Shown here: positions 1,037-35,146 of the stretch, one piece after another | How the letters are laid out: each line of letters opens with the position of its first letter | Position numbering within the stretch: the stretch's first letter is position 1 | DNA from: a virus | Direction: 5' to 3' (one strand) | IMG/VR virus record: IMGVR_UViG_3300027828_000016 | DNA: 38,245 nucleotides | Position numbers and translations under genes: made by a program | The notes under the pieces: model-generated | Database searches by the model: none | Told to the model about the DNA's origin: nothing | Seen by the model: only the letters and a program-made list of their open reading frames with translations

Positions 1037-1396
1037 TTACTCCATCATAGCCGCGCGCGGCATTATATGTTCAAGCCCATTCAGCCCAGCCCTATCATCG
1101 GTCCCAATGCCACGAGCCTCGAACGTTACAAGAAATGCGGCATTACATAAAACGTGAGCCAAGTGGGGAAGGCCACTTTCAGGATCTTTATCTTCTCCGG
1201 CCTCCCACGCTGTTAAATGACGCTTTAACGCGGCAACGGATCGTCCCCAGTCAAAGCCCTTTTCCCAGTTGCGAGAATCATATTTTTTTGCTCCCATTGT
1301 AAGGACTTGACCAAGCAGCCAAGTTGCCTCTGGTGGTATCAGGTCTAAGCGCACCTTTCCACCATCAAACTTAGCACCTTCAATATTATTTTTCAT
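1037..1396 (-). CDS. DUF5664-like protein (dATP/dGTP diphosphohydrolase N-terminal-like domain)
   Basis: Motifs KFDGGKVRLDLIPPEA, GAKKYDSRNWEKG, ALKRH, GEDKDPESGLPHLAH. ATG at 1396 is preceded by GGGAGG. The longer track ORF (to 1525) overlaps the upstream gene. Confidence 0.75.
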   Translation of the reverse strand: MKNNIEGAKFDGGKVRLDLIPPEATWLLGQVLTMGAKKYDSRNWEKGFDWGRSVAALKRHLTAWEAGEDKDPESGLPHLAHVLCNAAFLVTFEARGIGTDDRAGLNGLEHIMPRAAMME

Positions 1397-1397
1397 T

Positions 1398-2393
1398 TTA
1401 AATAAACCTCCCGCATTTAACAACTTTCGGCTTGATTGCCTGTAATTTCTTGATATGAGAGTACCAAACAACTTTTTGAATGTCACCATCAAAATCGTTC
1501 GGCACATCAAAATGAACCAAGCCAAAATTTACAGTGCCGCTACAACGCTGAGCGCCGAACTTTGTGGCCGGACCCTGAAGAGGTGGTAGAGTCATTGCGA
1601 GATAATTAAGAGAATCGCCGACGTGAATGTGATAATGGACGTGTGAACGGATAAAAATATTCCCTTTTGGTGCCCCGTCGATTTCTTCCCACAGTCGGTT
1701 CCAAACGTACTCTTTTGCAAGCTGGGTTGCCCGACCGTGCGGAATAGACGATGACCCAAGGTGATGTTTTACATCAAAAACGCAACCGTTGATATCAAGC
1801 CAAACATGGTCGCCTATCGTCGCCTTTGCCTCTCTGGCTATCCAGTCCTCGCACTCTTCCCCATCGGTGGTAACATGATATCCTGTCCCGTGGGTCATGT
1901 GTACCTCAGACGCGCCAACAAACTTGATGCACTCAGAAGCCATTTCCGCTTGCTCCGTTGTCGAGGTCGTAATTAACTCAACACCGCCGCTACGCTTCCC
2001 CTTACCATCAACAGAATCACCGTTTACTATCATGACGTCAATATGCCCAAGGGACTTGACAACACTTTCAAAGTGGTCCCAAGCCTCTCGCTGCATGATG
2101 GATCTCTGTTTAAATCTTACGGGGGCGTTGTGGGCATATTGTACCTGCCAAGGTGGCGGTGTAAGACCGGCGAAATGTCCACAGTGCATATCCCCGATTG
2201 CAAGCACTCGTTTAAAATCCCTCACCACGTTTTTTGCAACTGGCCTGCGCAACTTTTCACGAGACGGCTCGACAACTTTGTCAGGAGTAGCGTCTAGCCA
2301 CCGCGTAAACGTTGTCCTTGGCATGCCCAAAAGCTTAGCCGCCTCGCGTTTGCTGCCAGCTTTTTTATACCAACCTGCAACTGTATTACCCAC
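1398..2393 (-). CDS. Calcineurin-like metallophosphoesterase with N-terminal HTH
   Basis: Motifs GDMHCGH, NGDSVDGKG, HGTGYH, SHVHYH. The N-terminus SKREAAKLLGMPRTTFTRWL is HTH-like. GTG start at 2393. Confidence 0.75.
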   Translation of the reverse strand: MGNTVAGWYKKAGSKREAAKLLGMPRTTFTRWLDATPDKVVEPSREKLRRPVAKNVVRDFKRVLAIGDMHCGHFAGLTPPPWQVQYAHNAPVRFKQRSIMQREAWDHFESVVKSLGHIDVMIVNGDSVDGKGKRSGGVELITTSTTEQAEMASECIKFVGASEVHMTHGTGYHVTTDGEECEDWIAREAKATIGDHVWLDINGCVFDVKHHLGSSSIPHGRATQLAKEYVWNRLWEEIDGAPKGNIFIRSHVHYHIHVGDSLNYLAMTLPPLQGPATKFGAQRCSGTVNFGLVHFDVPNDFDGDIQKVVWYSHIKKLQAIKPKVVKCGRFI

Positions 2394-5942: not shown

Positions 5943-6556
5943 TACTGTAACTCCTTAATACGTTTTATTGTTTCCGCCAAATCTACGGCGAAGCGTTCAA
6001 GTTCATTGCTCAACTTTTCAATAAAGGTTTCGTCTCTAGTAACACGAACAATGAGCGCAGGCAATCCCGGGTTGAAAAACGACACAAAATCCCACCACTC
6101 ACGGCCAGTGATAAACATTGACCCTTGGACCTGTTGATAATATTTAGTCGGCAATACTCCTTTGAAAAGATATTCAAGATGAGTGTGGATTTTAGGGCAT
6201 TTAATTTCAACTCCGCCTTCATCACCCACAAGTCCGTCGGGAGAACATGAAAACAGCTTTCTCGCGTCGTGATAACAAAGCGCTACCTCTTTAACGTCAA
6301 CGTCGTTCATAAACTCGTAATAACGCCGCGCTTCTGCTTCCATTTCCACCCCACGCTCCATGGCCGCGTTACTGTATCCTTCTGTCTTTTCGCCAATGAT
6401 AGCTTCACCAGCAAGCTGATAGAGATACGCTTTGCGCTGTTTAGACGGCAGGCCCTTGCTTGTTACTATTTTATCGAAGCATGAGGCCGAAGGTATCCCG
6501 GATCGAGCCGCAAACCATTCTGGCGAACCCTGCTCAAAGTCTTCAATCGTTATCAT
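5942..6556 (-). CDS. YqaJ-type viral recombinase exonuclease (lambda Exo-like PD-(D/E)xK)
   Basis: QGSPEWFAARSGIPSAS ... SPDGLV ... VEIKCP motifs. Confidence 0.85.
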   Translation of the reverse strand: MITIEDFEQGSPEWFAARSGIPSASCFDKIVTSKGLPSKQRKAYLYQLAGEAIIGEKTEGYSNAAMERGVEMEAEARRYYEFMNDVDVKEVALCYHDARKLFSCSPDGLVGDEGGVEIKCPKIHTHLEYLFKGVLPTKYYQQVQGSMFITGREWWDFVSFFNPGLPALIVRVTRDETFIEKLSNELERFAVDLAETIKRIKELQ

Positions 6557-7131
6557 TACGCCCCCTTCTTAACCTTGGCCTTGATTGCCTTCCTGGCAGA
6601 CTTGTAATCGTCGGCGGCAATGTTCTCAACACTGGTAGAGCCAAACAAGGCGCAAAATTTGGAAATGTCTGAGCCTGTTTCCTTCAAGGCGGCATTAAGG
6701 TTTTCGGCCTGTTCCTTTGAAATAGAAACAAGCCCGATTGAATCGGCATCACGGTTGTCGTCAATCAGGAAAAGAGCATTGAGAGCGTATTTCCTTGCGT
6801 AGCTCGACGCCGCACCGGTCACTTGGCTTTCGTCCATCCCCTTTTTAGAAAGAGGCTCACGCGCCCATCCATAGCAACTCTTAGTCTCTCCGGTTGAGCA
6901 TGACACGGTTGCCGTAGCCTTTAAATAATAGCGTTCACCGACAACAATAATTTCGTCTGTGAGTGTCAGCAGCAATCCAGAGGCCAGCAAGCTAGGCTTG
7001 AGTGCCTGGAGGATATCCTCACAAGTTCGATATGCGAACCCGCCAAATTTGTTGTCTCTCATCTTTGGGGCTTTCAAGTCGTGTTGGACTTTGAGAAGCT
7101 TTTCATCAAGGGTGTGCGTGTTTTTTTCCAT
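6556..7131 (-). CDS. erf: ERF-family single-strand annealing protein
   Basis: FAYRTCEDILQALKP ... QVTGAASSYARKYALNALF motifs; AAGGAG upstream of ATG 7131. Confidence 0.85.
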   Translation of the reverse strand: MEKNTHTLDEKLLKVQHDLKAPKMRDNKFGGFAYRTCEDILQALKPSLLASGLLLTLTDEIIVVGERYYLKATATVSCSTGETKSCYGWAREPLSKKGMDESQVTGAASSYARKYALNALFLIDDNRDADSIGLVSISKEQAENLNAALKETGSDISKFCALFGSTSVENIAADDYKSARKAIKAKVKKGA

Positions 7132-7157
7132 TTCTACTCCTTTTGTTTTGTGCCAAG

Positions 7158-7186
7158 TTTATATATCCATTATAAACAAAAATCAA
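7158..7186 (-). promoter_or_regulatory. Candidate sigma70-type promoter for the leftward recombination/replication operon
   Basis: Minus strand reads TTGATT-17 nt-TATAAA, about 25 nt upstream of the erf SD. Confidence 0.3.
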
Positions 7187-7210
7187 GTTTAAAATATTTC
7201 CAAAAAAAGG

Positions 7211-7240
7211 TTGACAGTATTGCGACGCTTATGATTAGAT
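7211..7240 (+). promoter_or_regulatory. Candidate rightward promoter facing the non-coding RNA region
   Basis: Consensus -35 TTGACA (7211-7216), 18-nt spacer, TGaTTAGAT extended -10-like element. Confidence 0.3.
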
Positions 7241-7408
7241 CTATTCAACACGACAGCAAAACATCTACCACTGAAAGTGGATGTGTAAAAACTTGCTATT
7301 CATTTGACCGGCACCGTGTCGGTGGCAATCTACGGACAGCCACAGCGGGCAACCGCAGGCAAAACGGGCAAGGTTCACATTTGGAACCTTTGATCCTCCT
7401 AGTCTCCT

Positions 7409-7442
7409 GCCTGGAGAGGTTAAACCCAGGCAACATTTTTTT
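7409..7442 (+). terminator. Terminator-like hairpin plus T7 run
   Basis: GCCTGG (7409-7414) pairs with CCAGGC (7426-7431) across an 11-nt loop, followed by aaca and TTTTTTT (7436-7442). Confidence 0.35.
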
Positions 7443-7453
7443 GATCTTTGAAA
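7440..7453. repeat. 14-bp direct repeat TTTGATCTTTGAAA, copy 1
   Basis: Exact match to 7668-7681; follows a hairpin 3' arm. Confidence 0.9.
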
Positions 7454-7457
7454 ATAT

Positions 7458-7593
7458 GGTGGGGACTCGCGGCTAGAGGCAATTCGAGAAAGGTTTGCAA
7501 ACCTTGATAGGGAGTAGAAAACACACCTATTGGCGGCCTTTTTCTAGTGAGGGCTGACGGTGTGCGGAGGTTCAAATCCTCCCCCGACCACCA
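7458..7593 (+). ncRNA. tRNA-like element: canonical T arm, acceptor 3' strand, A and encoded CCA, plus a CUA anticodon-like hairpin. Not a canonical cloverleaf.
   Basis: GGAGG-TTCAAAT-CCTCC-CCCGACC-A-CCA at 7566-7593. Hairpin 7535-7555 has loop TTCTAGT. GGTGGGG at 7458-7464 pairs 6/7 with the acceptor 3' strand. About 48 extra nt carry two additional hairpins. Confidence 0.5.
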
Positions 7594-7667
7594 AATTTTG
7601 AGCGGTTGTGAAATGAAAGGCAGGACAGCAAGTCTGATAGTCAGACTAACGTAAAAATCCACCGCTC

Positions 7668-7681
7668 TTTGATCTTTGAAA
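7668..7681. repeat. 14-bp direct repeat TTTGATCTTTGAAA, copy 2
   Basis: Exact match to 7440-7453; directly follows the ACCGCTC 3' arm of the hairpin at 7600-7667. Confidence 0.9.
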
Positions 7682-7868
7682 TTCGATTTCTCATGTGATC
7701 ACACCAACCATTTGAGGTCTGTACATGCTCATCTTGATTTCTGATTGGCTCCCCACAAAGAGCCAACGCAGAATGGATGAGGTTATCGCCGGACAGCCGC
7801 TGAGAACCGAAGGCGTTTGGAGCCTTTAAGGTCCGGCGGTTGGGCCGGGAGGTGATCTAATAGAAAAG

Positions 7869-7896
7869 GCGGGTGCCGCTTGGATTCGGCACCCGC
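7869..7896. terminator. Perfect 10-bp GC-rich hairpin (terminator- or attenuator-like) ahead of the plus-strand gene block
   Basis: GCGGGTGCCG-cttggatt-CGGCACCCGC. The T-rich tail (CTTTTCTATT) is on the minus-strand reading only; the plus-strand side has an A-rich lead-in. Confidence 0.4.
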
Positions 7897-7938
7897 TATC
7901 ACATGAGACATCGAGTTTTTTTAAAAAAAAAGGTAAAT

Positions 7939-8088
7939 ATGCCAAATGATGGACGTAAAGATAGGTCAACCGGAGAGGTTTTCTACCACGGACAGTGGTG
8001 GGATGCAGAAGCCTCTTACCGGGAGGAAGCTGAAAAAGTAGCGTGTGAGCGCAATCATTTTAACCGAGAAAATGAGGAGGAGTCATGA
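7939..8088 (+). CDS. Hypothetical protein (49 aa)
   Basis: ATG 7939 follows AAAGG. The track ORF starts earlier (7873) inside the hairpin region, which is unlikely. Confidence 0.55.
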   Translation: MPNDGRKDRSTGEVFYHGQWWDAEASYREEAEKVACERNHFNRENEEES

Positions 8089-9116: not shown

Positions 9117-9299
9117 ATGAAACCTAAGCACACTGAAAAAGACTCTCGTGGACACCTGATCGTTGCTTGCTGTGAATGTCAGCGTGGCGGCAATGGCGAC
9201 CAATCCTGCTCGGCTGGAATGGATTCAAAACGATGGGACTATAAGTCCTGTTTCTGCGGCCAGCTCCTCGACAAGTACGACGCCAACAAGGTGCAGTAA
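9117..9299 (+). CDS. Hypothetical Cys-rich protein (60 aa)
   Basis: SD AAGAGGA upstream of ATG 9117. Confidence 0.6.
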   Translation: MKPKHTEKDSRGHLIVACCECQRGGNGDQSCSAGMDSKRWDYKSCFCGQLLDKYDANKVQ

Positions 9300-9504
9300 C
9301 AAATTTACAGACGCGGCGGCGCGGAAAGCAGACACGCAGTGGATCGGTAGCTCACGACCATACCTGAAAAATGTGAGGGCTTGCGATAATTAGGTGGATT
9401 CCCCCAAGCAAGCATGGACCACCATGAGAGAAAGGCATTGTCCGCCTTTGAGGATAGCCGGAGTAGCGACCGGCCCGCGTCAACAAATTAAAGGTAGGCA
9501 GACG

Positions 9505-9684
9505 ATGAGTAAAATTCACTACGAAATTCCAGCCATCGACGACAGGTTTATCCGCGTTGCTTGCCGGAGCCGCGAGTTCCAGAAGTACACGAAAGACCTT
9601 GGACGTGTGACATGTGCGAGGTGCCTCAAGACGGAAGTTTTCCGCGAGGCGTGGGCTAAAATGAAAGCGAAGAGTGGAGCCTAG
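9505..9684 (+). CDS. Hypothetical protein (59 aa)
   Basis: ATG 9505 preceded by AAAGGTAGG; the track ORF start (9394) is an alternative-codon extension. Confidence 0.55.
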   Translation: MSKIHYEIPAIDDRFIRVACRSREFQKYTKDLGRVTCARCLKTEVFREAWAKMKAKSGA

Positions 9685-9686
9685 AT

Positions 9687-10232
9687 ATGAGCGATCAAAA
9701 TTGCATCTACTGCGGAGAGTTAGTCAACTACTCGAGCGAACCGGAGTTCGGTGAAACTGGCGATAAAACGCCAAACGGCCCCGCTCATCATCGGTGCATT
9801 GCCAAGGCGCGGATCGAAGAACTTGAAGCCGAAGTCAAACATTTCAGGACAAAGGCCACAAGGTTTGAAGCTGAGAACGCCGCATTGCGTGATGATGCTT
9901 GCAAGCTGTTCGTCAAGCAAATGAAGGCAGACGGAGACGGCTTTCGCTTTGTGTTCGATAGCAATCCCGCTCTCCGCGCAATGTCTGAATGGGCTGTAGG
10001 TTTTCTCGCCGCCAATGACGCCCCAAATTTCATAGCAACAGAGTTAAGAGGTGGGCCATTCCCTGTCTCCATTTCATTTGAACGCATGGATGGAGAGGAC
10101 ACCCCCGCCGCCAAGCTGACCCGCTTGGATAACGCTCTGCGCTCTGTTCGTGAGCAACTTATCGAAACGGGTCTTGAACCCGGGACGCGAGTGGTTCGCA
10201 CTATTGATGAAGCAACAAAGATTGGAGGGTAG
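9687..10232 (+). CDS. Hypothetical protein with N-terminal CxxC and a coiled-coil segment (181 aa)
   Basis: ATG 9687 lies 2 nt after the upstream stop; IEELEAEVKHFRTKATRFEAENAALR heptad-like stretch. Confidence 0.7.
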   Translation: MSDQNCIYCGELVNYSSEPEFGETGDKTPNGPAHHRCIAKARIEELEAEVKHFRTKATRFEAENAALRDDACKLFVKQMKADGDGFRFVFDSNPALRAMSEWAVGFLAANDAPNFIATELRGGPFPVSISFERMDGEDTPAAKLTRLDNALRSVREQLIETGLEPGTRVVRTIDEATKIGG

Positions 10233-10236
10233 GTTT

Positions 10237-10884
10237 ATGAAAGTAGGTTGCATGCCTTTTACTGCCCGACTTGTGCGCTCCATCTTGGAAGGCCGCAAGA
10301 CGCAGACACGCCGAGTCATACCTACGCGGCTGACTTGTAATGCCGACATCGACAAGAACGACCCAACGTATTTCTTTGTCGAAGATCAGTACGGAGATTG
10401 GGAACCCGGCGAAGTGTACGCGCCTTATCAGGCTGGTGATATCCTTTGGATCCGTGAACCGGGACGTGTTGTTGATTTCAACTATTTCCCCTTACGTGTG
10501 GACGTTGAATACAACGCAGACCGTGACTTTCAAACGGTTCTCATGCCTGAACGCCTTCAGAAAGAAGATGGACTCGCGGGATTACCCCGGTGGGCATCGG
10601 AAACGAGGGGCATCCCTAACGGCATTTTTAAAGAAGCTGCTCGACTCTTCGTCAAGATCGTCAATGTTCGTGTCGAGCGCGTGGCCTGTATTTCCGAAGC
10701 GGATGCTCTCGCCGAGGGCATGGACACGCAAGACGAAGACAGGTTGCTCCCTACCCCAGTCGAACAATTCCAATACCTGTGGAACGACCTCGCGAAGAAA
10801 GGCTCCGAATGGTCCGACAACCCATGGGTGTGGGTCTACGAGTTCGAGCGCACCGACAAGCCCGCCGATTGGCCGGAAAATTGA
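10237..10884 (+). CDS. ASCH (PUA-like) domain protein
   Basis: N-terminal MPFTARLVRSILEGRKTQTRR motif, typical of phage ASCH proteins; GGAGGG upstream of ATG 10237. Confidence 0.65.
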   Translation: MKVGCMPFTARLVRSILEGRKTQTRRVIPTRLTCNADIDKNDPTYFFVEDQYGDWEPGEVYAPYQAGDILWIREPGRVVDFNYFPLRVDVEYNADRDFQTVLMPERLQKEDGLAGLPRWASETRGIPNGIFKEAARLFVKIVNVRVERVACISEADALAEGMDTQDEDRLLPTPVEQFQYLWNDLAKKGSEWSDNPWVWVYEFERTDKPADWPEN

Positions 10885-10906
10885 TAGTAGTCTTGGAGGA
10901 ATAATC

Positions 10907-11245
10907 ATGATCGAGATTTGCAATATCAGAAATGGACACCCGACAGAGGCATACGATTTTTACATTGATCGTCGCTCACCAGTTGGCAATCCGTTCCCCA
11001 TGAAGAAAGAGGCGCAACGCGACATTGTGTGTGACGCCTACGAGGAACACTTCGCCAGAATGGTCAAGCTCGGCAACCATGAATTTGTCGGCTACCTGAC
11101 CACCATGAGCAAAGCCCTTGAGATTCACGGCAAGGTACGCCTGTTTTGCTGGTGCGCCCCCAAGCGTTGCCATGGCGAAATGATCAAGCAGTATCTTGAG
11201 TCAAATACGCCGTCTCATTCAAAAGAAGTGGGCAACAATGAGTAA
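10907..11245 (+). CDS. DUF4326-family protein
   Basis: YIDRRSPVGNPF ... GKVRLFCWCAPKRCHGEMI pattern; SD GGAGGA upstream of ATG 10907. The 5' part of track ORF 10340.. lies out of frame over the ASCH gene. Confidence 0.7.
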   Translation: MIEICNIRNGHPTEAYDFYIDRRSPVGNPFPMKKEAQRDIVCDAYEEHFARMVKLGNHEFVGYLTTMSKALEIHGKVRLFCWCAPKRCHGEMIKQYLESNTPSHSKEVGNNE

Positions 11246-12002
11246 AACGCACGTAGTTATGTTTTCAGGGGGTAAGGATTCCCTCGCTCAACTCATCGTC
11301 ATGATGCAGCGCAAAGAGCCTATCCACTCTGTTGTGAATGTTGATGTGGGGTGGGAGTTCCCGTGGATGTACGACCATATAAACAAGGTTGCTGCCATGT
11401 TGGAAAGCAAGGGGATCAAGTTCGTCCGCTTCAATATCGCTGACAAGATTCGATACCTCATGTTTAAGCATGCCGTTTTTGGGCGTGACGAGCCATACAA
11501 AGGCAAGCTGCGTTACTTCGGCAAAGGATGGCCCGGCCCCGGTCGCCGCTGGTGTACCCGCGAGAAAAACGAACTCAAGGACAAGTACATCAAATCCATT
11601 GATGGGGCTGTGTCCTGCATCGGCTTTGCCGCCGACGAAGCGCACCGCGCCGAATCGAAGAACCTAAAAAAGCAGCCCTATGATGTGCGGTTCCCGCTCA
11701 TTGAGGAGGGATTAACCGAAGTCGACGCCCTCGCGCTCTGTCGTGAGCATGGATACTACCCCAAAGGCGGCTCCCCTTACGATCACTTCCGGCGGGTGTC
11801 CTGCTTTTGCTGCCCACTCCAACCGATCGAAGAATTGCGGGCCTTGCGCGTCAACTATCCCAACGAATGGGCGATAATGCTCAAGTGGGACAAGCTCATG
11901 CCGAGCATCAATAAGCCTTTCAAGGCCGGGGAAACCGTCCATGATCTGGACGCACGTTTTGAGTACGAAGCAAGCATGATGGGGCATTGCCATGTGGCGT
12001 AA
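11238..12002 (+). CDS. PAPS-reductase-fold PP-loop ATPase family protein
   Basis: VVMFSGGKDS PP-loop near the N-terminus; C-terminal CFCCP motif; 254 aa from ATG 11238. Confidence 0.75.
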   Translation: MSKTHVVMFSGGKDSLAQLIVMMQRKEPIHSVVNVDVGWEFPWMYDHINKVAAMLESKGIKFVRFNIADKIRYLMFKHAVFGRDEPYKGKLRYFGKGWPGPGRRWCTREKNELKDKYIKSIDGAVSCIGFAADEAHRAESKNLKKQPYDVRFPLIEEGLTEVDALALCREHGYYPKGGSPYDHFRRVSCFCCPLQPIEELRALRVNYPNEWAIMLKWDKLMPSINKPFKAGETVHDLDARFEYEASMMGHCHVA

Positions 12003-15779: not shown

Positions 15780-17288
15780 TTAGAGGTTACGATCAAATCT
15801 AATATATCCTGACGTGTTATTAAAAATCAGCCAAAGAGACTCCCCTGGAGTTAGTCCAGATGCTACTTGAGCTTGAACAACTCCCATCCCGTTGGTTGCA
15901 TCCAACAAAGACAAAGAGGTTGGCGTAATGGCTGTTCCATTCGGCTTATAAATTGATATGTCAGAAAGATTACTAACAGACATCGCCGTATCAATTCTGT
16001 TCATTGCCCTTGGCAAAACAACCGGAATTTCTGCCGCAGTAGAGACTAAAGCTCTTCCGAGGTGGAGCCCAAGACGATTTGAATAAGCCGATGGCCCAAT
16101 TTGCCAGAACCAATTAGTAGCCTTTTCTGTCTCTGACACCTTGTCAGGCTTGACTGTTGCAGTTACAACAGTCCCTTCCGCAAGTTTCGGCAATGCAAGA
16201 GCGCCTATCCCCCATTCAACTGAGGCATTTGTGCCACCCGTCAAAGTTCCAGTTATTCCGCTGTCACCATATGTGCCAGAATCGATCCTAGCCTGCGCTG
16301 TCCCTGTCCATGACAGGATATGTGTGCCGGACTTGAATTTATCACCGGGAACGATCTGCAAAAGTGTTCCTGCTGTGATTGTGATAGTGTTGATCCCTTC
16401 CGACTTGGCGAAAGTATACGTACATCCAGACGCCCCTGCCTTAAACCTGTCATGGCCGTATTCCCCTGAAGATAGTGATACGGTGCCTGATACCGCCTGT
16501 TGATTTATGCCAAAATTAGCATTGTCTATTAGGTTCGCGCTAGTTGCAATTCCTTCTGGGGACCCCTCTATTGTCCCGACATAAAGGCTTTTCCAACCTT
16601 TTAATGCTGACCCCAAATCAGCCCCGTCATCAGAAATTGGAGTTGCGTTACTGTCAAAAGTATAGTCACCAGTACCAGTTGTTTCAAAATTAACGTCGAC
16701 TCCATTGAATGTTTTTCTATGGTATGTCCCAGATGTTAACTCCGACAAGCGGTTATAGGCGAATCCAGCCCCTACGGTGTTGACAGAGTCATTAAAGACT
16801 GGCTCCTGTTTGTTCTGTAAGTCGTCTCCAATGCCAACCCAAGAGCCCGAAACGAGTTGTAGGTGAACAGCGTTGACAAGGAGTTTCAAGCTTGTGTCTG
16901 GGTCTACTGAAACAGCCAAGTTCCCAGCGAGTGACAAATAGACGTCTCGGAACTTAGACGCCGGACGCAAAATAATAATAGACCCGTCTTGATAATTTGT
17001 CGTGACGATAGTATCGAGGGTATCGCTTGACGCCGCCCCCTCAGTATCAACAACTTGGGCGGAACTTCCAAGCGGCGTAATCGATCCGCTGGAAATGGTA
17101 ATATTCTGTGGCGCCCCACCGCCCGGGACACCATGAGCATTGGGATTTTCAGTTGTTACTAGGTCTGCATTTACGTCTTCTATCAAGTCATCAATGGCGT
17201 CGCTGTTCTTAAATGCAGCTTCTTTTACAGTGTCGCCACCGGGGACAGAAGGGTCAAGTACTGTCGCTGTATTTCTTTCTATTGTCAT
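15780..17288 (-). CDS. Tail fibre / receptor-binding protein candidate
   Basis: Last large gene of the structural operon. Gly/Ser/Thr-rich beta-type sequence. GGAAGG upstream of ATG 17288. Confidence 0.6.
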   Translation of the reverse strand: MTIERNTATVLDPSVPGGDTVKEAAFKNSDAIDDLIEDVNADLVTTENPNAHGVPGGGAPQNITISSGSITPLGSSAQVVDTEGAASSDTLDTIVTTNYQDGSIIILRPASKFRDVYLSLAGNLAVSVDPDTSLKLLVNAVHLQLVSGSWVGIGDDLQNKQEPVFNDSVNTVGAGFAYNRLSELTSGTYHRKTFNGVDVNFETTGTGDYTFDSNATPISDDGADLGSALKGWKSLYVGTIEGSPEGIATSANLIDNANFGINQQAVSGTVSLSSGEYGHDRFKAGASGCTYTFAKSEGINTITITAGTLLQIVPGDKFKSGTHILSWTGTAQARIDSGTYGDSGITGTLTGGTNASVEWGIGALALPKLAEGTVVTATVKPDKVSETEKATNWFWQIGPSAYSNRLGLHLGRALVSTAAEIPVVLPRAMNRIDTAMSVSNLSDISIYKPNGTAITPTSLSLLDATNGMGVVQAQVASGLTPGESLWLIFNNTSGYIRFDRNL

Positions 17289-17291
17289 TGT

Positions 17292-18650
17292 CTACCTTCC
17301 GTACTCTTCACTTCTTTCTATGTTTGTAAGCAACGCACGAGTTGCAGCACCACCCGTTCCGATATTTGGCACTTTTCTCGCCCTCGCCAACGCTATGGCG
17401 AGTCTTGATTTCACCTGAGGGTGGCCCAATATTGACTTCCCAATCAGGGCAGAGGCCCCGGCGAAAGGACCACCAGCAATGCCAGCCCCGCCCATGAGGG
17501 CCGCCGTGTCGAGGCCTAAAAGGTTCCGATTCTCTATGCGGCCAACGGAATCTTCTATAGCCCTTTTTAAATTGATTAATTCTGCTTGGCCTTCATTGAG
17601 CTTCTTCAACTCAGGATGTAAATTTTCAAGCTCTTCTTTCAAGCCACGAACAATTGCTTTGTTTGCTTCAACTTGTGAAGACTTCAGTTCTCCATACTGC
17701 TTGTGCAGGGCCTTGCCTGTGGTTTGCTTTATTGCCTGAGCCCTTGATGGTGTAATCTGTTCAGGGACTGACTCTATGAACTCAGAAACTACACCGGCAG
17801 CTTGTCTTGTCGGCCTGATTGGAGCGACCTGTTTTCCGGCCTCTTCCATGACGGGGATAGCTCTTTCAACGACTGACTTTCTAGAAATCCTTTCCCCTGC
17901 GGTTGTTGCATCTTCAACAACTTGTCTGGCCTGTTGTGCAAGTGGCTCAATACGCTCCCCGAGGAGTCCGGCACCTCTTGCCGTCGGCAACGCCTTTTCT
18001 CTGGCTGCCGTTTGCATCATTTGAGCACGTTGCTCTGGCGAAAACTGTTTCCCCGGCTTAATAACTCCCATATACATGCGTTCAGGAAGAGAGGTGCCAC
18101 CGATTGCCCTAAGCGGGGCTGTAACGGTCTGTCTAGCTATATTCAACGGATCCGCAATCTCTCCGGCTCTCTGTATTGCTTGGCCGACCCTAGCAACCTT
18201 TGGCGTCATCCCAATCCCCTTTGTAAGGGCGCCGGCACCAGATACCAAACCAGAGGCATCCGCAAGGAAACCAACCGGATCTTCTACCATGGTCTTTTTC
18301 ATCGCCTGAGGTGACCCGTAACGGTCTTTCATAACGTTGGCGAACCCCATAAACGCCGCTCTGTCCTCTTGCGTCCTTGGGATCATCGATAGCCCCCCAG
18401 GCAGAGGAACGCCGCTTCCCTTGACCATGTGGTATAGGCTCGACAAGGTTTCAAGCGGATTTGCCACGGCGGCACCAAGATTTTTCACATAGTCGATGGC
18501 GCTACCAGCTATGTTGCTTTTTACGTCTGCCCACTCTGGCTGCACATCCTCTTTTTGAACGCTCGTCACGCCACCCGCTTTGACAGCATGCTTTTCCCAA
18601 GGCATTTCTACGACGTCAGGTGTCTTATATTTTTCCCAAGGCTTCGACAT
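17292..18650 (-). CDS. Virion structural protein (internal virion/ejection or tail-associated), 452 aa
   Basis: Position in the tail/internal-protein run; Ala/Gly-rich helical sequence; TAATG coupling. Confidence 0.5.
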   Translation of the reverse strand: MSKPWEKYKTPDVVEMPWEKHAVKAGGVTSVQKEDVQPEWADVKSNIAGSAIDYVKNLGAAVANPLETLSSLYHMVKGSGVPLPGGLSMIPRTQEDRAAFMGFANVMKDRYGSPQAMKKTMVEDPVGFLADASGLVSGAGALTKGIGMTPKVARVGQAIQRAGEIADPLNIARQTVTAPLRAIGGTSLPERMYMGVIKPGKQFSPEQRAQMMQTAAREKALPTARGAGLLGERIEPLAQQARQVVEDATTAGERISRKSVVERAIPVMEEAGKQVAPIRPTRQAAGVVSEFIESVPEQITPSRAQAIKQTTGKALHKQYGELKSSQVEANKAIVRGLKEELENLHPELKKLNEGQAELINLKRAIEDSVGRIENRNLLGLDTAALMGGAGIAGGPFAGASALIGKSILGHPQVKSRLAIALARARKVPNIGTGGAATRALLTNIERSEEYGR

Positions 18651-34045: not shown

Positions 34046-34480
34046 CTAAATGCCGTCCTTCTCGTTCGCCAAATTCATGGCCGACTGTAGCAGGGTCTGC
34101 ACGTTTTCGGTGGATTTCCCCTCGGCTAGGCGGGACTTGTCAAACATGATGCCGTGCATGCCAACCAGCTGATACGCCGATGAGTCTTGAAGCTTTTGGT
34201 CAGTGATGCTGGTTAAGATGCGGCTCTTCAAAGCTGCAATCAGGTCAGCCTCATTATCTTTGTAAACCTTGACGTCTAGCGCATCTGGGCACCACTTCTT
34301 AATTTTCTGGTATACTGCGGATTTTGATACGTCGAACTGGTTCCCGATCTCCTCAAGAGTCAAGCCTCTAAGCCTCATCTGCACGGCCTTTGCAATGTCG
34401 ATTTTCGAGTTGCTGGCCGGTTTTGGCTCGTTAAGCGTGACGGTAATCTGTTTCGGAGTTGTTTTTTTAGGCAGTCCCAT
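34046..34480 (-). CDS. HTH-domain protein (144 aa): transcription regulator or small-terminase-like
   Basis: IDIAKAVQMRLRGLTLEEIGNQFDVSKSAVYQKIKKW helix-turn-helix. The C-terminal MFDKSRLAEGKSTENV reminds me of TerS oligomerisation regions. Confidence 0.6.
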   Translation of the reverse strand: MGLPKKTTPKQITVTLNEPKPASNSKIDIAKAVQMRLRGLTLEEIGNQFDVSKSAVYQKIKKWCPDALDVKVYKDNEADLIAALKSRILTSITDQKLQDSSAYQLVGMHGIMFDKSRLAEGKSTENVQTLLQSAMNLANEKDGI

Positions 34481-34508: not shown

Positions 34509-34523
34509 GTGTCAATCTGACAC
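34509..34523. promoter_or_regulatory. Inverted repeat GTGTCA-atc-TGACAC (site 1 of 3)
   Basis: Perfect 6+3+6 palindrome in the 42-bp gap between the two HTH genes; shares a roughly 25-bp extended match with site 2. Confidence 0.6.
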
Positions 34524-34957
34524 TACTGGATATCCTCTTTCGACAACCCAGTAGATTCAAGCAACTCTAGTTTCCGTTGGGCATATAGTTTGTCGTTCCA
34601 CTCTGGGTGATCTAAAACGTCTGCCCTGTTATATATTGGTTTGGGTGTCAGCCTGACACCGGTATGCTTGTGGTGTCTCTGTGACACTACCCCGTCGATG
34701 ATTGTATAGTGGTTTGCTTTCCCGAGTTCCTTACGAGAATCAAGTAGCCCCTTATCTCTCAAGGACTTGGCTGTGCGGATAACGGTTGATCTCGAAAGAG
34801 ACATCAGCCTTGACAAGGTGTCATATGATGGGAAACAAAGGGCTGTCTGATTATTCCGAAATTGCAAAAGCGTTATGAGAAAGAATTTCTCGTTTGCACT
34901 GAGTCCCTCTTGCCCATAGACCCAGTCTTTGAGACGAGCATTGTCTGTCCTTCCCAT
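34523..34957 (-). CDS. Winged-HTH protein (HTH_36 / replication-organiser-like), 144 aa
   Basis: LSANEKFFLITLLQFRNNQTALCFPSYDTLSRLMSLSRSTVIRTAKSLRDKGLL pattern; AAGGGG SD. Confidence 0.65.
   Translation of the reverse strand: MGRTDNARLKDWVYGQEGLSANEKFFLITLLQFRNNQTALCFPSYDTLSRLMSLSRSTVIRTAKSLRDKGLLDSRKELGKANHYTIIDGVVSQRHHKHTGVRLTPKPIYNRADVLDHPEWNDKLYAQRKLELLESTGLSKEDIQ
34644..34660. promoter_or_regulatory. Inverted repeat GGTGTCA-gcc-TGACACC (site 2 of 3)
   Basis: Perfect 7+3+7 palindrome inside the wHTH gene. The preceding ATTGGTTtGG matches the ATTGGTTaGG that precedes site 1. Confidence 0.6.
34673..34687. promoter_or_regulatory. Inverted repeat GTGTC-tctgt-GACAC (site 3 of 3)
   Basis: 5+5+5 palindrome 28 bp from the centre of site 2. 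Followed by TAC, as in site 1 (GACACTAC). Confidence 0.45.
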
Positions 34958-35070: not shown

Positions 35071-35146
35071 TGGAGCCAGCGGGACGACTTGAACGCCCTG
35101 CCTGGTGGTTACAAAGCACCGGCTCTACCTGATGAGCTACACTGGC
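35071..35146 (-). tRNA. tRNA-Thr (anticodon UGU), CCA encoded
   Basis: Hand-folded 76-nt cloverleaf: GCCAGTG/CGCTGGC acceptor, U8, GCTC-ATCAGGTA-GAGC D arm, anticodon loop TTTGTAA, GGGCG-TTCAAGT-CGTCC T arm, U73, CCA. The one weak point is a C31-C39 mismatch. Confidence 0.85.

Follow-up and report, generated by a model that had tools for sequence, protein, structure and literature searches.

Whether a stretch of DNA that ends like a transfer RNA (tRNA) gene is, or ever was, a tRNA is the question raised by an element of 136 nucleotides (nt) at positions 7458-7593 of IMG/VR record IMGVR_UViG_3300027828_000016. The record is a marine phage genome of about 38 kb (38,245 nt), and the whole of this stretch is referred to here as the window. 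A first-pass annotation, made from the letters alone, had noted a T arm, an encoded CCA and an anticodon-like loop that would read UAG. It offered as identities a suppressor tRNA with an insertion or intron, a degenerate tRNA, a decoy or processing handle, and a small RNA resembling transfer-messenger RNA (tmRNA). The reading favored here, with a probability of about 0.5, is that the sequence represents a decayed or rearranged phage tRNA cassette of a tRNA-Tyr-like, class II type. Among the identities on offer, the degenerate tRNA is the best fit. What the annotation had not seen is that the element belongs to a lineage-specific insert, bounded by direct repeats, within a conserved and structured leader RNA.

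Every coordinate and string of the annotation proved correct when checked against the sequence. The parts of the element are as follows:

7458-7464, + strand: candidate acceptor 5' strand GGTGGGG, forming 6 of 7 pairs with 7583-7589 and a G:G at position 4
7466-7488, + strand: D-arm-like hairpin (CTCG at 7466-7469, CGAG at 7485-7488) with a 15-nt loop containing GAGG
7490-7534, + strand: 45 extra nt with no tRNA counterpart, made up of the palindrome AAGGTTTGCAAACCTT (7490-7505), an ATAGG...CCTAT hairpin (7507-7530) and TGGC
7535-7555, + strand: anticodon-arm-like hairpin GGCCTTT / TTCTAGT / GAGGGCT with CTA at positions 34-36, U33 and G37
7556-7565, + strand: variable-region-like spacer of 10 nt, GACGGTGTGC, directly before the T stem
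7566-7582, + strand: T arm GGAGG-TTCAAAT-CCTCC with five Watson-Crick pairs and a consensus T loop
7583-7593, + strand: acceptor 3' strand CCCGACC, discriminator A and encoded CCA, correctly spaced after the T arm

The case for a tRNA origin is carried by the 3' end. The last 28 nt (7566-7593) contain the T arm, 7-nt acceptor strand, discriminator and CCA of a canonical tRNA. The window has two sites at which a 5-bp T stem, a TTCRANY loop and a CCA stand at tRNA spacing, against 0.007 expected per window from dinucleotide shuffles. The second occurrence is the window's one genuine tRNA-Thr(TGT), at 35071-35146, which does encode its own CCA as had been pointed out. An anticodon-type hairpin in the right place before the T stem, defined by a stem of at least 5 bp and a 7-nt YU...R. 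loop lying 4–21 nt ahead of the T stem, is present in only 2.2% of shuffles. In the element, the 7-nt loop of this hairpin occupies 7542-7548 and has both the U at position 33 and the purine at position 37. Since the T arm with its CCA and the properly placed anticodon-like hairpin both exceed chance, the 3' 59 nt (7535-7593) are clearly tRNA-derived. This part corresponds to the 3' two-thirds of a tRNA with a long variable arm, comprising a CUA arm, the variable region, the T arm, the acceptor 3' strand, A73 and CCA.

The remaining 77 nt at the 5' end are not demonstrably part of a tRNA fold. A fully paired 7-bp acceptor stem is not formed, either with GGTGGGG (6/7 pairs) or with GATAGGG, the alternative chosen by ARAGORN (5/7 pairs). 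Because 36% of shuffles contain a stretch able to form 6 or more of the 7 pairs with the acceptor 3' strand, the GGTGGGG pairing is not evidence in itself. The D-arm-like hairpin also departs from the canonical layout: one nucleotide connects it to the acceptor strand, its loop exceeds the usual D-loop length, and the extra 45 nt intervene before the anticodon-like arm. In the minimum-free-energy fold, CACACC (7522-7527) pairs with GGTGTG (7559-7564) and lengthens the anticodon-like arm. The folding energy does not stand out, its z-scores being -1.2 to -1.5. Thus, among the cloverleaf-like parts that had been listed, the T arm with CCA and the CUA hairpin stand beyond chance and the acceptor partner does not.

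The tRNA-Tyr ends that the annotation had cited are right: the E. coli tyrU gene starts with GGTGGGG and ends with CCCCACC-A-CCA. The 5' GGTGGGG of the element is identical to that of tyrU, the last 28 nt agree at 24 of 28 positions, and A73 is shared. The CUA triplet corresponds to the GUA of tRNA-Tyr with the supF change. The element differs from E. coli tRNA-Tyr in having a G:G at 4:69, a variable region of 10 nt rather than 13 nt, G37, the 45 extra nt and a non-canonical D arm.

Gene finders did not accept the element. ARAGORN in its default, intron and tmRNA modes called no gene on it and detected the tRNA-Thr in the same window; at gathering thresholds, Rfam found nothing on the element and only the tRNA-Thr elsewhere in the window. 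Both results agree with the earlier description of the element as tRNA-like with no canonical cloverleaf. When Rfam matches were admitted to E ≤ 10, those on the element were RtT RNA (13.9 bits), beta_tmRNA (10.7 bits, E = 0.12) and tmRNA_permuted (9 bits). The best match within the tRNA clan was partial at 10.7 bits; the gathering scores are 84 bits for beta_tmRNA, 47 bits for tmRNA_permuted and 29 bits for the tRNA model RF00005. The matches to the RtT and permuted-tmRNA models are weak and align the 3' ends of those models with the T arm of the element. Relaxed ARAGORN settings gave a poor 88-nt tRNA(cta) at 7506-7593 that uses the hairpin at 7535-7555 as its anticodon arm; its acceptor contains two mismatches, and its D stem, with two bracketed pairs, is very weak. 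The hairpin at 7466-7488 was not taken as a D arm. In comparison with phage tRNA genes and pseudogenes, the element has the T arm, acceptor 3' strand and encoded CCA seen in the phage's own tRNA-Thr, but it lacks a cloverleaf, is 136 nt long with approximately 45 additional nt separating the D-like arm from the anticodon-like one, and fails default ARAGORN and the Rfam tRNA model.

An insertion within an otherwise intact tRNA was considered by deletion scanning, in which each internal segment of 15–74 nt was removed and default ARAGORN was run again. At the default threshold, 78 variants yielded a tRNA(cta), most of them starting at 7458, and the deletions that rescued the call were about 51–58 nt long. 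For controls, the last 28 nt were fixed and the remainder was shuffled (n = 120). At least one tRNA call was obtained from 25 of these (21%), and for this reason rescue by deletion is not accepted as proof of an intron or insertion. The result hints at a tRNA that carries a large insertion but does not prove it. The suppressor tRNA with an intron that had been suggested is not borne out, as ARAGORN's intron mode finds nothing and a call requires an artificial deletion of a kind that also succeeds in those 21% of controls.

The element forms part of a segment marked off by two exact copies of a 14-nt sequence, identified in a repeat search with a spacing of 228 nt:

7440-7453, + strand: direct repeat copy 1, TTTGATCTTTGAAA (14 nt), at the left boundary and overlapping a T run behind a hairpin of the upstream leader
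7454-7667, + strand: lineage-specific segment of 214 nt, comprising the tRNA-like element and a trailing hairpin, known from this phage only
7600-7667, + strand: trailing hairpin of 68 nt (predicted fold), GAGCGGT...ACCGCTC around AGTCTGA-TAG-TCAGACT
7668-7681, + strand: direct repeat copy 2, TTTGATCTTTGAAA (14 nt), at the right boundary

The T-rich second copy of the repeat directly follows the trailing hairpin, and together they make a second terminator-like module. Exact patterns of the 3' end, the 5' end and the anticodon-like arm, searched in IMG/VR, returned only the same phage (L001 and L082) with identical copies. A blastn search against phage genomes matched only the T-arm regions of real phage tRNAs, and a blastn search of the element against E. 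coli genomes gave nothing useful.

Relatives were sought through the neighboring proteins (ERF, ERCC4 and a 49-aa protein), and two were informative. The first is a phage represented by the marine metagenome contigs L083/L084, with identities of 54% for ERF, 68% for YqaJ and 66% for SSB. The second is a prophage of Pseudodesulfovibrio profundus (L129/L132) in which ERCC4 is 89% identical. The marine contigs lack the 214 nt, and the non-coding DNA on both sides is retained at 77–86% nucleotide identity, with common blocks at 7305-7369, 7406-7444 and 7667-7847 of the window. At the insertion point, L084 has an unrelated 29-nt hairpin and a single copy of the 14-nt repeat that aligns with copy 2 of the window. 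The possibility that this 29-nt linker is a remnant of the insert was rejected, the alignment being not significant. The P. profundus prophage also lacks the 214-nt segment; only the upstream leader block is present, directly before the homologue of the 49-aa gene. The linker is thus 214 nt in the window, 29 nt in L084 and absent in L129. In both relatives the homologous leader region is without the element. As both relatives lack the segment, the sequences suggest that its gain in this lineage is more parsimonious than its loss in the others.

In a separate survey, tRNAs were considered as a recurrent neighbor of ERF modules and rejected as such. A tRNA of any kind was present in 3 of 97 ERF-linked loci scanned (98 loci if an unrelated tRNA-cluster locus, L128, is counted), and none was at this position.

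The leader into which the segment would have been inserted has two conserved parts:

7300-7445, + strand: leader domain A+B, a conserved non-coding block with 77–86% nucleotide identity to L083/L084
7683-7914, + strand: leader domain C, closed by a long-range helix (7683-7698 with 7899-7914)

Domain A+B is found at about 1385-1565 (- strand) of L084 and about 9800-10000 (+ strand) of L132, and in all three phages it is upstream of a homologous small gene that encodes 49 aa in the window and L132 and 66 aa in L084. The products of this gene have the motif [ST]GE..(F/Y)..G.W in common. A terminator-like unit closes domain B, made up of the hairpin 7408-7432 (UGCCUGG...CCAGGCA) and a run of seven T behind it (7436-7442). 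All three phages have this hairpin, and their alignment shows a T-A pair exchanged for G-C. Domain C is 79% identical to its counterpart in L084, and its closing helix was picked up independently as an inverted repeat. RNAalifold applied to the two domain C sequences gave 63 pairs, 11 of them with compensatory double changes. Since both flanks are structured and covarying, the insert lies in a tolerated linker between them. No Rfam match to the leader domains was obtained in the window, L084 or L132, and searches with five leader-block patterns found no further members in viral, metagenome or genome collections. The leader would be transcribed on the + strand, judging from a shared GGTTGACAG motif upstream (7209-7217), the T runs after hairpins and the downstream genes; a consensus promoter scan of the region found nothing.

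Some other properties of the leader were observed. A conserved CUCCUC stretch in domain A+B could pair with GGGAGG in the hairpin and give an attenuator-like alternative fold. A 34-codon open reading frame (ORF) at 7725-7829 (MLILISDWLP...GVWSL) is matched in L084 by one of equal length with conserved ends. The middle part shows no protein-level conservation, and covarying helices run through the ORF, which is unlikely to be a gene. Near the end of domain C, a strong 10-bp hairpin at 7869-7896 has an intrinsic-terminator score for the minus strand alone (tail CTTTTCTATT), on which no gene ends at this point. L084 has a different hairpin at the same spot.

With these observations in mind, the decayed tRNA cassette may be described as follows. 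The cassette (7454-7667), consisting of the tRNA-like part and its own terminator-like hairpin, would have arrived as an accessory insert, or would be what remains of one, and the site of insertion would be the variable linker between the two conserved structured domains of an early-right leader. It would be co-transcribed with the leader once transcription passes the domain B hairpin and its T run. A stacked acceptor/T helix, a T loop, a 3' ACCA and U(-1) are the features by which RNase P and the 3'-trimming enzymes recognize their substrates. The element has kept such features in its sequence, with 6/7 acceptor and 5/5 T-stem pairs, the T loop, ACCA and a T at 7457 that would serve as U(-1). 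For this reason, cleavage by RNase P at 7457/7458 followed by trimming to the CCA is considered probable. The product would be a stable, CCA-ended RNA of about 136 nt, and the cut would part the upstream leader from domain C and the mRNA behind it. Charging of the element and UAG decoding by it are unlikely.

Known RNAs offer partial parallels for such a cassette. In Stx phages, as in phage 933W, tRNAs are located downstream of pR'/tR'. The element resembles them in being placed in a non-coding stretch behind a terminator-like hairpin with its own hairpin following. Within Stx2 phages, tRNAs are found around stx2a (PMC7946995). RNase P is known to cleave substrates other than tRNA precursors, including the M3 RNA of phage phi80, the precursor of the C4 antisense RNA of phages P1 and P7, and tmRNA (PMC11143913). 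The resemblance to these non-tRNA substrates is in an acceptor/T-type stacked helix with a 3' RCCA inside a longer phage transcript, with cleavage in the present case being predicted. The RtT RNA of the tyrT operon, a further non-tRNA substrate of this kind, carries a copy of the tRNA-Tyr 3' end, and its model matches the element at 13.9 bits. There is no homology to these RNAs past the tRNA-Tyr-like 3' end.

Several points weigh against a decayed cassette. The perfect T arm, the intact CCA and the clean 7-nt CUA loop represent more order than is expected of a long-dead pseudogene. In the deletion scan, the count of tRNA calls obtained from the real sequence, with rescue of a tRNA(cta) that starts at 7458, was matched by only 2 of the 120 shuffled controls. 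Whether the segment was gained here or lost in the relatives is not proven. All copies of the element that were found are identical, so they offer no variants from which covariation, decay or selection could be measured. Finally, we infer both the transcription and the processing of the element.

It is unlikely, though the most probable of the alternatives, that the element is a functional, non-canonical tRNA-like RNA under selection. In such a role it could be a suppressor or otherwise charged tRNA with an expanded region between its D and anticodon arms, a decoy for a host anticodon nuclease or a tRNA-targeting defense, or covalently linked cargo of the structured leader. The intact features at the 3' end (perfect T arm, ACCA, U33, purine 37 and the CUA triplet) are consistent with this, as is the performance of the element in the deletion scan, where it gave a tRNA(cta) starting at 7458 more often than 118 of 120 controls. 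In addition, its 5' end and D-loop core are similar to tRNA-Tyr, the classic amber-suppressor scaffold. There is also a precedent in the GOLLD RNA, whose linker sometimes holds phage tRNAs (PMC12286853). The present arrangement is similar in that a tRNA-type element is found in a variable linker that joins two conserved structured domains of a phage RNA. It differs in that no Rfam family, GOLLD and ROOL included, matches the flanking domains in the window, L084 or L132. Nor is the tRNA-type element intact as a tRNA, and it is present in only one of the three known members of the leader. A working, structurally expanded tRNA-like RNA that might be charged and read UAG, or act as a defense decoy, and that would travel like the GOLLD tRNAs as a covalently linked passenger in the linker of a previously undescribed leader RNA, is rather improbable; the element may also be a decoy or processing handle, as had been suggested.

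A number of observations argue against selected function. No detector accepts the element at normal thresholds, the acceptor stem contains a G:G with pairing at chance level, and the element is absent from both relatives. In tRNAs, a G at position 37 is unusual next to A36, and this is the combination found in the anticodon-like loop. In the standard code, ORFs cover 96% of the window, and TAG is the stop codon of 18 of 71 ORFs, the terminase included. Three of the longest in-frame continuations past a TAG were checked. The ORF at 17292-18650 ends in TAG and is followed in the same frame by 15780-17288, with an ordinary junction that has a ribosome-binding site. The ORFs at 34523-34957 and 34046-34480 (144 aa each) are TAG-ended and in frame with one another, and are neighbors with no detectable mutual similarity. 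The third, at 9163-9393, is not a gene. Amber recoding of the phage was rejected on these grounds, since TAG is an ordinary stop and the in-frame candidates are a junction, a pair of neighbors and a non-gene. The amber-suppressor option of the first-pass annotation is thus disfavored.

A relic of a recombination site, either an attP remnant or a scar of integrase-mediated or illegitimate recombination marked by the direct repeats, is more doubtful still. Integrases that target tRNA genes carry the 3' part of the tRNA, from the anticodon stem to the CCA, in attP. This agrees with the finding that only the part of the element from the anticodon arm to the CCA is statistically tRNA-like, and direct repeats do bound the segment. 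Moreover, the P. profundus prophage encodes an excisionase as well as an integrase, whose gene adjoins a tRNA-Arg(CCT) 5' half cut at the anticodon loop. However, the direct repeat is outside the tRNA-like part and not within it, no integrase is present among the window ORFs searched, and in the L132 gene table int and att are approximately 6–7 kb downstream of the leader. The 22-mer spanning T loop and acceptor strand has no exact match in 185,579 representative genomes, among which the true host may not be included. No natural host tRNA with a CUA anticodon is to be expected besides tRNA-Pyl, which the element does not resemble.

The partial tRNA-Arg(CCT) is of some interest by itself. It is a 5' half on the minus strand at 16860-16970 of L132 (LT907975.1), directly after the prophage integrase. 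Shortly after the anticodon loop the tRNA sequence breaks off and gives way to a terminator hairpin, and a transposase gene is next to the half. ARAGORN called no tRNA in this interval.

A chance likeness to a tRNA, arising in non-coding DNA, is very improbable. Random expectation does cover the acceptor pairing, the 5' hairpins and the folding energy as a whole, but the T arm with its CCA and the anticodon-like hairpin, at the frequencies given above, are jointly hard to obtain by accident. Least credible of all is a tmRNA-like RNA, whether a mini tmRNA or the acceptor piece of a two-piece permuted tmRNA: the weak beta_tmRNA and tmRNA_permuted matches over the T arm, CCA and trailer and a GGTTGGG in domain C that could pair with CCCGACC are outweighed by scores of at most 10.7 bits that fall far under the gathering values, a U3-A70 pair in place of G3:U70, the lack of a tag ORF and of pseudoknots, an ARAGORN tmRNA mode that reports nothing by default and only a spurious call on the opposite strand at an 80% threshold, and the conservation of domain C in L084, which has no acceptor piece, so that the mini-tmRNA option is effectively refuted by its missing defining features.

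The element and its leader are situated in an 808-nt gap (7132-7939) without convincing genes. To the left is a leftward operon encoding ERF (6556-7131), a YqaJ exonuclease, SSB, an ERCC4 nuclease and a DnaB-like helicase; to the right is a rightward operon, the first gene of which is the 49-aa gene at 7940. The portal, major head protein and large terminase are encoded at 25–31 kb of the window, which also encodes a lysozyme and a holin. The host is indicated only by the relationship to the P. profundus prophage. Three further genes in the window encode a dATP/dGTP diphosphohydrolase N-terminal domain (1037-1525), a DUF4326 protein (10340-11245) and a PAPS-reductase-like domain (11196-12002), which together hint at nucleotide-pool or DNA-modification functions. 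A gap of about 200 nt at 9300-9505 is flanked by small cysteine-rich ORFs (9117-9299 and 9506-9684), both with good ribosome-binding sites, and the mechanically derived ORFs across it appear spurious.

The leader RNA on either side may be of greater novelty than the element, and its conserved, covarying domains, which belong to no Rfam family, merit separate study. As for the decayed tRNA cassette, if it is only that, it is a small example of how phage leaders gain and lose tRNA-type inserts, and a caution that a perfect T arm and a CCA do not make a tRNA. If the element is processed or charged, it would show a structured leader RNA of a phage being cut up or decorated by means of a tRNA minihelix, and the layout of a tRNA within a large RNA, as in GOLLD, would be extended to a new and very rare family in phages of sulfate-reducer-like and marine hosts.

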